Source: Octopus vulgaris
Taxonomy: Eukaryota
Assembly (NCBI GenBank): GCA_951406725.2
Contig: OX597822.1
Coordinates: forward strand, 75,516,001 to 75,580,000
Reading direction: 5' to 3'
Length of the DNA stretch: 64,000 nt
Shown piece after piece: positions 1,833 through 54,989 of the stretch; the first letter of the stretch is position 1, and every line of letters starts with the position of its first letter. The notes beneath the pieces are model-generated. The model had not been told where the DNA came from and did not search any database. It was given only the letters and a program-made list of their open reading frames with translations. The position numbers were made by a program, and so were the translations under genes.

Positions 1833-2124
1833 TTCTTATGCTGGTGTGTGAGTCACTTTATTTAAGTATACTCGTAGCTGTGTACTTGTTTGTAACTCTC
1901 TCTCTTTCTATAGTGAGAGAGAGAGACAGAAAGACAGAAACAAGAGAGACAGAAACAGGCAGAAACAAGGAAAATGCCGCATGTATTTGAATACTATGCA
2001 ATTATTCGTTTAAAAAACTTTCTTTTAATTTTCCCAAAATTAAAAAATTTACTTTTTCCATATAGTTGAAAAAATCTCAATGACTGAAACCGGTATTGAA
2101 ATGTTATTTTAGAAAACTTTTTTT

Positions 2125-2174
<50 letters not shown>

Positions 2175-2244
2175 GTCTATATCTATCAATCTATTTGTCT
2201 GTCTATGTATGTATGTATGTATCTATCTATCTATCTACTTTCTT

Positions 2245-2301
<57 letters not shown>

Positions 2302-4160: not shown

Positions 4161-4265
4161 AATATATAATGTACTGATCCGTGATAGAAAATTAAACAAA
4201 AAAAGGTACTCCATCTGATGAGAGATAAATAATATTTATTTAAAGGTCACAATACATGTATTAAA

Positions 4266-4318
4266 ACACTACTAATAGTTTCGCAGGTTGAGAAAACTCA
4301 AGCATATTCCTCAGATGC
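4266..4318 (-). ncRNA. Type I hammerhead ribozyme, degenerate stem II base
   Basis: Minus strand reads GCAU-CUGAGGA-AUAUGCUUGAGuuuuCUCAACCUGC-GAAA-CuauuaG-UA-GUGU; core intact, stem I relies on wobble pairs, stem II only partly paired. Confidence 0.55.
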
Positions 4319-4369
4319 AAACTGCATATCATAACGAACTAAAATTCTTTAGCTTGTTTTATGTGGTTT

Positions 4370-4423
4370 GCGCCTGAAGAATATGTTAGAGTGTTTCAAA
4401 ACATATGAAACTATTAGTAGCGC
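4370..4423 (+). ncRNA. Type I (minimal) hammerhead ribozyme, intact core
   Basis: GCGC-CUGAAGA-AUAUGUU(loop)AACAUAU-GAAA-CuauuaG-UA-GCGC; 7-bp stem II, 4-bp stem I, predicted cleavage after A4419 (GUA). Confidence 0.8.
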
Positions 4424-4451
4424 TTTAATACATGTACTGTGACCTTTAAAT

Positions 4452-4545
<94 letters not shown>

Positions 4546-35210: not shown

Positions 35211-35277
<67 letters not shown>

Positions 35278-35397
35278 ACAATCAAGGAACGGCCATAATA
35301 GGCCATTCACCCACTAGAAATAACAGCCAAAAGCTTTAACCGCAAAATAACGTTAATTCCGTAAACCAGGAGAAAATTGAAAAACATTTACCCTGTA

Positions 35398-35504
35398 ATT
35401 TCTTAGACGATGCACCGTTTCATCTTCTGTTTAATGGAAAACTAACCTGATTAAATTAAATCAAGCCAATCTACCATAGGCCCTTAGAATCATCAGTAAG
35501 AAAT
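35398..35504 (-). ncRNA. Type I hammerhead ribozyme, monomer 1
   Basis: Reverse complement of the motif at 37018-37124. Confidence 0.75.
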
Positions 35505-35891
35505 AGCCAAGCCGGAACAGATATTTTTCACGAGGCATTCTCGTTGCTACCTCGTCAATATCTGACCTAAAATTTTCAAATCGTCGCACTCGCGCCAAAT
35601 TTATCGGCAGCAAATAAATATAAGCCGCCGATTCCATTACGGAATTAACCAGAAAATTCATAATTAATCAATATAGGGTGGCAAAAAAAAAATTTTGTAG
35701 AATTCTTTTGCCACCAGCGGCCTAGTGGGAAAAAATTAAATAATCATAAACTATTTTTAAGTTCAACATCAACAATCAAGGAACGGCCATAATAGGCCAT
35801 TCACCCACTAGAAATAACAGCCAAAAGCTTTAACCGCAAAATAACGTTAATTCCGTAAACCAGGAGAAAATTGAAAAACATTTACCCTGTA

Positions 35892-35998
35892 ATTTCTTAG
35901 ACGATGCACCGTTTCATCTTCTGTTTAATGGAAAACTAACCTGATTAAATTAAATCAAGCCAATCTACCATAGGCCCTTAGAATCATCAGTAAGAAAT
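35892..35998 (-). ncRNA. Type I hammerhead ribozyme, monomer 2
   Basis: Reverse complement of the motif at 37018-37124. Confidence 0.75.
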
Positions 35999-36382
35999 AG
36001 CCAAGCCGGAACAGATATTTTTCACGAGGCATTCTCGTTGCTACCTCGTCAATATCTGACCTAAAATTTTCAAATCGTCGCACTCGCGCCAAATTTATCG
36101 GCAGCAAATAAATATAAGCCGCCGATTCCATTACGGAATTAACCAGAAAATTCATAATTAATCAATATAGGGTGGCAAAAAAAATTTTGTAGAATTCTTT
36201 TGCCACCAGCGGCCTAGTGGGAAAAAATTAAATAGTCATAAACTATTTTTAAGTTCAACATCAACAATCAAGGAACGGCCATAATAGGCCATTCACCCAC
36301 TAGAAATAACAGCCAAAAGCTTTAACCGCAAAATAACGTCAATTCCGTAAACCAGGAGAAAATTGAAAACATTTACCCTGTA

Positions 36383-36489
36383 ATTTCTTAGACGATGCAC
36401 CGTTTCATCTTCTGTTTAATGGAAAACTAACCTGATTAAATTAAATCAAGCCAATCTACCATAGGCCCTTAGAATCATCAGTAAGAAAT
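36383..36489 (-). ncRNA. Type I hammerhead ribozyme, monomer 3
   Basis: Reverse complement of the motif at 37018-37124. Confidence 0.75.
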
Positions 36490-37017
36490 AGCCAAGCCGA
36501 ACAGATATTTTTCACGAGGCATTCTCGTTGCTACCTCGTCAATATCTGATCTAAAATTTTCAAATCGTCGCACTCGCGCCAAATTTATCGGCAGCAAATA
36601 AATATAAGCCGCCGATTCCATTAGGAATTAACCAGAAAATTCATAATTAATCAATATAGGGTGGCAAAAAAAAATTTTGTAGAATTCTTTTTGCCACCAG
36701 CGGCCTAGTGGGAAAAAATTAAATAGTCATAAACTATTTTTAAGAATTCTACAAAATTTTTTTTTGCCACCCTATATTGATTAATTAAATAATTAAATAG
36801 TCATAAACTATTTTTAAGAATTCTACAAAATTTTTTTTTGCCACCCTATATTGATTAATTATGAATTTTCTGGTTAATTCCGTAATGGAATCGGCGGCTT
36901 ATATTTATTTGCTGCCGATAAATTTGGCGCGAGTGCGACGATTTGAAAATTTTAGGTCAGATATTGACGAGGTAGCAACGAGAATGCCTCGTGAAAAATA
37001 TCTGTTCCGGCTTGGCT

Positions 37018-37124
37018 ATTTCTTACTGATGATTCTAAGGGCCTATGGTAGATTGGCTTGATTTAATTTAATCAGGTTAGTTTTCCATTAAACAGAAGAT
37101 GAAACGGTGCATCGTCTAAGAAAT
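37018..37124 (+). ncRNA. Type I hammerhead ribozyme with long stem II, inverted monomer
   Basis: AUUUCUUA-CUGAUGA-(68-nt stem II region)-GAAA-CGGUGCAUCG-UC-UAAGAAAU; perfect 8-bp stem I, predicted cleavage after C37116 (GUC). Confidence 0.75.
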
Positions 37125-37350
37125 TACAGGGTAAATGTTTTTCAATTTTCTCCTGGTTTACGGAATTAACGTTATTTTGCGGTTAAAGCTTTTGGCTGTT
37201 ATTTCTAGTGGGTGAATGGCCTATTATGGCCGTTCCTTGATTGTTGATGTTGAACTTAAAAATAGTTTATGACTATTTAATTTTTTCCCACTAGGCCGCT
37301 GGTGGCAAAAGAATTCTACAAAATTTTTTTTTGCCACCCTATATTGATTA

Positions 37351-37411
<61 letters not shown>

Positions 37412-54392: not shown

Positions 54393-54467
<75 letters not shown>

Positions 54468-54475
54468 TTGAGTTC

Positions 54476-54539
54476 GTTGCACTGAAGAGCATAGAATGCA
54501 TATTGTGCATTGATTGCGAAATCACAGGTGATATGTAAC
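54476..54539 (+). ncRNA. Type I hammerhead ribozyme, intact core
   Basis: GUUGCA-CUGAAGA-GCAuagAAUGCAuauugUGCAUUgauUGC-GAAA-UCACagGUGA-UA-UGUAAC; predicted cleavage after A54533 (AUA). Confidence 0.85.
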
Positions 54540-54660
54540 TAAATTCTGTTTTTAAATGACTTGCTTTGAAGTTTTGCATTCGGTACAATTTGTTTATTTT
54601 AGTAGTTTTGATTGCAAGAGTCCCTCCTAGCGTGCGGTACCTATGAATAATAGTACCCTC

Positions 54661-54730
<70 letters not shown>

Positions 54731-54848
54731 GGTACTATTATTCATAGGTACCGCACGCTAGGAGGGACTCTTGCAATCAAAACTACTAAAATAAACAAAT
54801 TGTACCGAATGCAAAACTTCAAAGCAAGTAATTTAAAAACAGAATTTA

Positions 54849-54912
54849 GTTACATATCACCTGTGATTTCGCAATCAATGCAGAATATGCATTCTATGCT
54901 CTTCAGTGCAAC
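54849..54912 (-). ncRNA. Type I hammerhead ribozyme, intact core (mirror copy)
   Basis: Reverse complement of 54476-54539 with one change in the stem II loop. Confidence 0.85.
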
Positions 54913-54920
54913 GAACTCAA

Positions 54921-54989
<69 letters not shown>

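Follow-up and report, generated by a model that had tools for sequence, protein, structure and literature searches.

The window, a 64,000-nucleotide stretch of Octopus vulgaris DNA (assembly GCA_951406725.2, contig OX597822.1, positions 75,516,001 to 75,580,000 of the forward strand), contains a near-perfect palindrome in which two arms, each with a hammerhead ribozyme motif, face one another across a TA tract (Table 1). The first-pass annotation had described arms of 196 bp with 2 mismatches and (TA)n at both flanks and in the centre, and a comparison of the arms in the assembly verified this description. The arms are reverse complements of each other, mismatched solely at positions 54505 and 54558, which amounts to a divergence of about 1%. 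The core between them consists of 67 nt of TA with a single additional A close to the left arm. The 3′ junctions of the two arms are unequal: the left arm retains the extra A of the element, whereas the right arm passes into pure TA. The left arm has two private bases, one of which (54505) is found in this arm only and the other (54612) is common to both arms; the right arm carries a minor family allele at the position mirroring 54558. (TA)n tracts border the palindrome on both the left and the right, and the two outer flanks are unlike each other. The left flank is single-copy, and there is no second haplotype in the assembly. An apparent wider inverted repeat of 354 nt around the palindrome turned out to be a compound microsatellite and no true mirror.

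Table 1. Features of the palindrome and its borders, in positions of the window
Feature	Positions	Strand	Description
Left (TA)n tract	54416..54464	.	Meets the truncated 5′ end of the arm via short AT microhomology; junction compared with family copies
Left arm	54465..54660	+	Monomer positions 297-492 (last 196 nt) of the ~495-bp hammerhead retrozyme; 5′-truncated, tail-less; likely the original insertion
Left-arm hammerhead motif, type I	54476..54539	+	Cleavage predicted between 54533 and 54534; extension of stem I possible to 54470/54546
TA core	54661..54727	.	Self-complementary; initial 8 nt are the element's own continuation; likely the turn-around point of the mirror
Right arm	54728..54923	-	Mirror copy; 5′ end same as in the left arm; tail-less; pure-TA 3′ junction
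Mirror hammerhead motif	54849..54912	-	Predicted cut between 54855 and 54854; placed by mirror arithmetic
Right (TA)n tract	54924..54981	.	

The hammerhead motif and its predicted fold

All parts of a type I hammerhead can be placed in the left arm: a 6-bp stem I (54476-81 paired with 54534-39), CUGAAGA (54482-88), a 29-nt stem II domain with a G-C closing pair, GAAA (54518-21), stem III (54522-31) and an A-U-A cleavage triplet immediately ahead of the predicted cut. The core motifs CUGANGA, GAAA and U-H surround a three-way junction with an open stem I, as in type I hammerheads, and both cores of the palindrome are intact. Stem III is very short and self-complementary. A search of Rfam with a single arm gave no hammerhead match at E≤10, and there was no hammerhead among the 150 of 399 matches listed for the window. 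The missing match is probably due to the 29-nt stem II domain. MicroRNA-like Rfam matches, obtained with both the window and the arm, were rejected, as they are under gathering scores and are caused by the TA repeats and the hairpin. In the sibling families described below, the core and stem III are identical, and the 6-bp stem I and 4-bp stem II differ in sequence yet pair. Since these stems have changed but can still form, the comparison supports a putative genuine ribozyme lineage.

We also considered the predicted folds, using models that leave out tertiary contacts, protein help and dimer folding. The fold constrained to the hammerhead lies above the ensemble by +3.6 kcal/mol for 86 nt, +7.3 kcal/mol for the full arm and +97 kcal/mol for the full palindrome. 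From 120 nt onward the difference is about 7 kcal/mol via a local competing helix, and the same helix is predicted in a typical family copy. The hammerhead is accordingly predicted not to be the ground-state fold and to be disfavoured even in one arm. In young copies of the family, non-majority bases amount to 1.8% in CUGANGA and 1.6% downstream, so that the core is not clearly better conserved. The first-pass annotation had assigned a textbook type I hammerhead to each arm. The core, stems I-III, the G-C closure and the AUA triplet are indeed present, but "textbook" is overstated given the lack of an Rfam match, the short self-complementary stem III and the predicted non-ground-state fold.

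The parent family and its relation to known retroelements

By its sequence, each arm is the 3′ end, truncated on its 5′ side, of a non-LTR retrozyme, a non-coding hammerhead repeat of ~495 bp. The arm is repeated in the 2.8-Gb genome (2113 first-look candidates, 40 of which were scored), and a 20-mer from its 3′ end has 363 exact genome matches, compared with 0 for the control, which gives at least 363 genomic copies of the family 3′ end. A genome search with one arm, proposed as a check in the first-pass annotation, thus found the sequence singly, in tandem and head-to-head. The distance between successive 3′ motifs defines a monomer of 488-497 bp, which occurs both in tandem and dispersed and in which sense stop-free frames do not exceed 78 aa. 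At the level of the family we therefore find what characterizes non-LTR retrozymes, namely, tandem monomers that are short and non-coding and contain a type I hammerhead. The two consecutive hammerhead units by which the available text of Li et al. 2026 recognizes an active copy are absent here, as the palindrome contains two inverted 196-nt ends only.

Several families of sibling retrozymes, ~459 bp in length (loci L134-L163), have the same self-complementary stem III and 3′ region and a 12-nt stem II, and account for 172 exact pattern matches. On the antisense strand, full monomers contain a stop-free frame of up to 156 codons (locus L030, 1939-2409, + strand), a length reached in 0 of 1000 dinucleotide shuffles. 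We rejected this 156-aa frame as a gene: it has no Pfam match and varies between 88 and 156 aa in 13 full monomers and between 48 and 64 aa in 6 sibling monomers. The lengths of most monomers, which are not divisible by three, also count against it. At the same locus (~1995-2280, reverse strand), a separate TA-flanked inverted-repeat element of MITE-like shape lies beside the retrozyme array.

A census of how family copies are arranged covered 98 classified loci, reduced to 95 by the removal of 3 segmental duplicates. Similarity or a junction pattern led to 38 of these loci; the other 57 were picked by position among the first 100 of the 363 matches. The sample comprises 49 head-to-head pairs, 41 single runs, one tail-to-tail pair (the palindrome) and 4 others. 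In 40 of the 49 head-to-head pairs, one arm ends at a short site and the other bears a tail of ~124 nt. Of 92 position-picked runs, 84 have their 3′ end at one or the other of two fixed sites, and the 5′ ends are scattered. The family as a whole thus displays 5′ truncation, head-to-head inversion, a tail at one end and a (TA)n target, all of which are marks of Penelope-like insertion. Within the 49 head-to-head loci the 5′ ends of the two arms are correlated, with 14 of 49 pairs within 15 nt versus 3.9 expected; for position-picked pairs the figures are 6 of 30 versus 2.4 (p 0.025). These near-coincident 5′ stops look as if one RNA had templated both arms.

Metazoan non-LTR retrozymes resemble the family: their monomer is short, AT-rich and non-coding, contains a single type I hammerhead and is found as tandem and dispersed copies, and their mobilization by Penelope-like elements has been proposed (Cervera and de la Pena 2020, PMC7229834; Li, Clavereau and Pollet 2026, 10.64898/2026.07.22.740005). 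The octopus monomer exceeds the 150-450 bp quoted for them in the available text. Unlike tandem retrozymes, the palindrome, which consists of two truncated inverted ends and no tandem, cannot give a unit-length circle. Among the papers listed in a literature search on octopus hammerhead retrozymes, none concerned the ~495-bp family by its title or the start of its abstract. Endonuclease-bearing Penelope-like elements resemble the family in 5′ truncation, head-to-head inversion, two fixed 3′ ends, a one-sided tail and (TA)n targeting, as far as they are described in the available texts (Craig et al. 2021, PMC8557442; PMC3846280; Frangieh et al. 2024, PMC11167929). In particular, an anole Penelope-like element has two reverse transcriptase (RT) start sites, matched by the two 3′ ends of the family (PMC11167929). 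The family differs from these elements in being without an ORF and in having a tail of ~124 nt as opposed to the 30-40 nt given there.

We found no RT/GIY-YIG ORF in the element, and among 30 fetched GIY-YIG loci (of 148 matches) none shares a pLTR with the monomer, although one adjoins a sibling retrozyme. The attachment of the arm to such an ORF, which the first-pass annotation had suggested looking for, thus did not emerge from these 30 loci. Loci L194-L196 represent a young Penelope-like family with a 781-aa frame carrying a C-terminal GIY-YIG, an overlapping upstream frame and an AT-rich end at (TA)n; a pattern search detected no canonical hammerhead in it. As a partner this family was rejected, since it ends at (TA)n but has no sequence in common with the monomer. 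A lead based on a divergent hammerhead with the same stem III was dropped as well, there being no ORF of 120 aa nearby. The idea that the locus is a tail-to-tail pair of a small Penelope-pLTR or retrozyme unit primed on TA repeats therefore survives in part. Penelope-type non-autonomous hammerhead ends, insertion into (TA)n and the tail-to-tail layout are all seen, but the arm is no independent unit; it is the last 196 nt of the ~495-bp monomer.

Origin of the mirror

Within its family the palindrome is exceptional. It is the sole clean tail-to-tail pair in the 95 loci, against 49 head-to-head pairs, and the sole +/- pair among the 153 tail-less 3′ ends listed for exact patterns (100 of 129 plus 53 of 53). 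Two further loci, L099 and L108, have 3′ ends that face each other across TA. An exact pattern for short-core tail-to-tail pairs had 0 matches genome-wide, and the first 100 sibling-family hammerheads listed, counted by eye, include 14 head-to-head and 0 tail-to-tail pairs. Both ends of the palindrome are tail-less, which is the case in only 1 of the 49 head-to-head pairs. Its arms begin at the identical base, whereas the 5′ ends lie within 3 nt of each other in just 1 of the 49. Runs whose 5′ end lies at monomer positions 289-297 make up 2 of the 92 position-picked runs. In addition, the base at 54612, present in both arms, occurs in 0 of 126 other copies, and the 22-mer around it matches the palindrome alone. 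The arrangement is rare and probably accidental.

Duplication of a single insertion at the DNA level was absent from the options of the first-pass annotation, and it fits best. We lean somewhat towards the explanation that one TA-flanked insertion was mirrored when a growing strand folded back or switched template within the self-complementary TA tract. The tail-to-tail layout would then probably be a single copying accident at a TA repeat and not a built-in RNA switch. A Penelope-like RT/GIY-YIG protein would have primed cDNA at nicked (TA)n using the tail-less start site, and drop-off of the RT near monomer positions 292-297 would have left TA-arm-TA. In later replication or repair, or in second-strand synthesis, the strand having copied the arm could have re-primed on its own TA and slid beyond the lone extra A. 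It would then have synthesized the arm in reverse as far as the left TA tract before rejoining the TA on the right. A strand of this kind is able to re-prime in the core and, after reverse copying, to rejoin the right-hand tract, since (TA)n repeats itself in direct and in inverted orientation alike. The slide past the extra A may also be the reason why only the left junction keeps it. After mirroring, each arm would have acquired one substitution, the ribozymes being passengers.

Several observations bear on DNA-level mirroring. A template switch is recognized by a near-exact mirror with homologies for both switches; here, TA tracts lie at all three junctions and the arms share the same 5′ end and a private base. 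Short-range template switches are described as reverse-copying a local segment between short homologies, producing perfect inverted repeats (PMC7954356). The palindrome departs from the cases in the available text of that paper in that its switch points lie in (TA)n, a direct and inverted repeat at once, and in that the ancestral allele is inferred. Single TA-arm-TA copies cut at monomer positions 292-293, the presumed precursor form, exist at three loci (L006, L023 and L070). A search pattern for the exact TA-to-arm 5′ junction was discarded, as 13 of its 17 matches belonged to an unrelated repeat. Locus L099 (G000:C2:43608150-43610300) contains, at 406-1440, an inverted duplicate of a family insertion that includes the inversion junction (360/376 identical). 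This mirror spans a 13-nt TA core, ends at a non-canonical site and is likely a product of DNA-level copying. Judged from sequence comparisons, the exceptional geometry, the broken one-tail rule, the identical 5′ ends, the shared private base, the precursor forms and L099 suggest mirroring.

Other observations speak against it. The shared private base is not diagnostic, since such bases are also found in 6 of 44 other inverted pairs, the 5′ ends of ordinary pairs are correlated, the right arm has a hot-site allele and the 3′ junctions are unequal, the pure-TA type of the right arm being found in 10 of 134 junctions. The hot site, 54558 (monomer position 390), undergoes recurrent G-to-T or G-to-A change at ~10x background; 16 of 109 copies have a base other than G there, and in 0 of 7 other pairs do both arms share the change. 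Tests of its relation to copy age gave mixed results, with p 0.43 over all copies and p 0.028, pointing to older copies, within the position-picked set. The change could stem either from slippage of the RT or from a hot spot in the DNA.

In the main alternative, both arms may have been reverse-transcribed from one RNA source as two copies from the tail-less start, a possibility that is real but, on balance, doubtful. The routes would be a TA tract nicked on both strands with outward 3′ ends, self-priming of the UA-rich 3′ end, or re-insertion of a left-arm transcript next door. With AT-rich DNA, the purified Poseidon protein of the anole cleaves and extends both strands, starting internally and using uncleaved RNA (PMC11167929). 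Self-priming on a sense template is stated to yield tail-to-tail repeats (Arkhipova et al. 2013, PMC3846280). Of the matches listed in a search on tail-to-tail pairs, this was the one Penelope paper of relevance. In the available text of that paper, the combination that sets the palindrome apart from ordinary Penelope-like pairs, a tail-to-tail layout with two tail-less ends, appears solely as an outcome of sense-template self-priming. Since the 5′ ends of ordinary pairs are correlated, double copying of the same RNA could yield near-identical ends, and private bases are shared in some ordinary pairs. The right arm has its own junction type, and its hot-site allele, if the site is one of RT error, would point to a second RT pass. 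Still, among 49 pairs only one has two tail-less ends and only one has 5′ ends ≤3 nt apart, no other same-family tail-to-tail pair with canonical ends is among the 153 ends listed, and no source locus with the private base was found elsewhere in the genome. With similar doubt, the palindrome may be the fixed footprint of a rare Penelope-type integration, by outward double priming or 3′ self-priming on one RNA, the tail-to-tail product being predicted but seldom seen. An assembly or library artefact, whether a chimera from fold-back at TA or the adjacent placement of two haplotypes, is unlikely. TA tracts and inverted Penelope structures are difficult to assemble (PMC8557442), but the arms differ at two substitutions, one of them a natural family allele, and at the junction; moreover, the left flank is single-copy, the flanks differ, and L099 is an older, diverged mirror of similar type. 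Chance insertion of two unrelated copies in opposite orientation into one TA tract is more improbable still. It has a precedent at locus L108 (G000:C2:139461500-139463150), where two sibling retrozyme families, with 3′ ends 72% alike, lie tail-to-tail within a single TA tract. These belong to two different families and thus represent independent insertions, but the arms of the palindrome share a base absent from 126 other copies and have the same 5′ end.

We also assign very little probability to the palindrome being a functional or mobile unit, either MITE-like or a bidirectional ribozyme timer choosing between cleavage and dsRNA. MITEs are short, non-coding and TA-flanked and have long inverted arms. 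The likeness to them noted in the first-pass annotation ends there: the whole inverted-repeat unit was found once, and its arms recur separately as retroelement ends, singly, in tandem and head-to-head. A literature search for hammerhead ribozymes in MITEs or terminal inverted repeats gave no match. In favor of a timer, both cores are intact, and no geometry other than tail-to-tail lets transcription of either strand reach the ribozyme before its complement. However, there is one locus only, the core shows no clear excess of conservation over the remainder in young copies, and the modeled energies disfavor the hammerhead at all three lengths. Transcription elongates at 20-60 nt/s. At such speeds, the fraction cut within a 310-nt window would be 7-19% at a cleavage rate of 0.8 per minute and 35-73% at 5 per minute. 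The lower rate is that reported for a coral retrozyme (PMC7229834). The predicted hairpin has 194 bp in uncut RNA, and one of 126 bp would persist after a cut. According to these models, most read-through RNA of either strand would end up as a ~195-bp hairpin whether or not it is cut, and dsRNA would arise from the 49 head-to-head loci as well. We see no sign of selection at this one-off locus with arms ~1% diverged. The co-transcriptional kinetic switch proposed in the first-pass annotation is thus not borne out, given a hammerhead fold disfavoured in one arm, a small predicted cut fraction and a long hairpin regardless of the cut.

Implications and other hammerhead repeats in the window

As a system the palindrome is ordinary, being one rearranged copy of a retrozyme family of known kind. 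Its interest depends on how it arose. If fold-back is the true course, then TA-targeting retroelements are flanked by tracts that repeat in direct as well as inverted orientation and would be ready substrates for new palindromes. If both arms were made by the RT, the locus would be a rare exception constraining how Penelope-like elements prime and join their two cDNAs. If it represents a rare mode of integration, the hammerhead precedes its own complement on both strands, which would make the locus a natural construct for cleavage versus hairpin capture.

Two other hammerhead repeats are present in the window. The first, at 35275-37352, is a 494-bp unit with a very long stem II, present in three tandem copies and a head-to-head inverted part with TA on either side, which is the usual Penelope-type layout. 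The palindrome had been considered unrelated to this monomer, and the comparison agrees, its best match to the unit at 35275 being 19 nt (E 0.029). The second is a small, degraded fold-back at 4233-4456, with 79% self-complementarity and, on the + strand at ~4370-4425, a minimal type I hammerhead motif.
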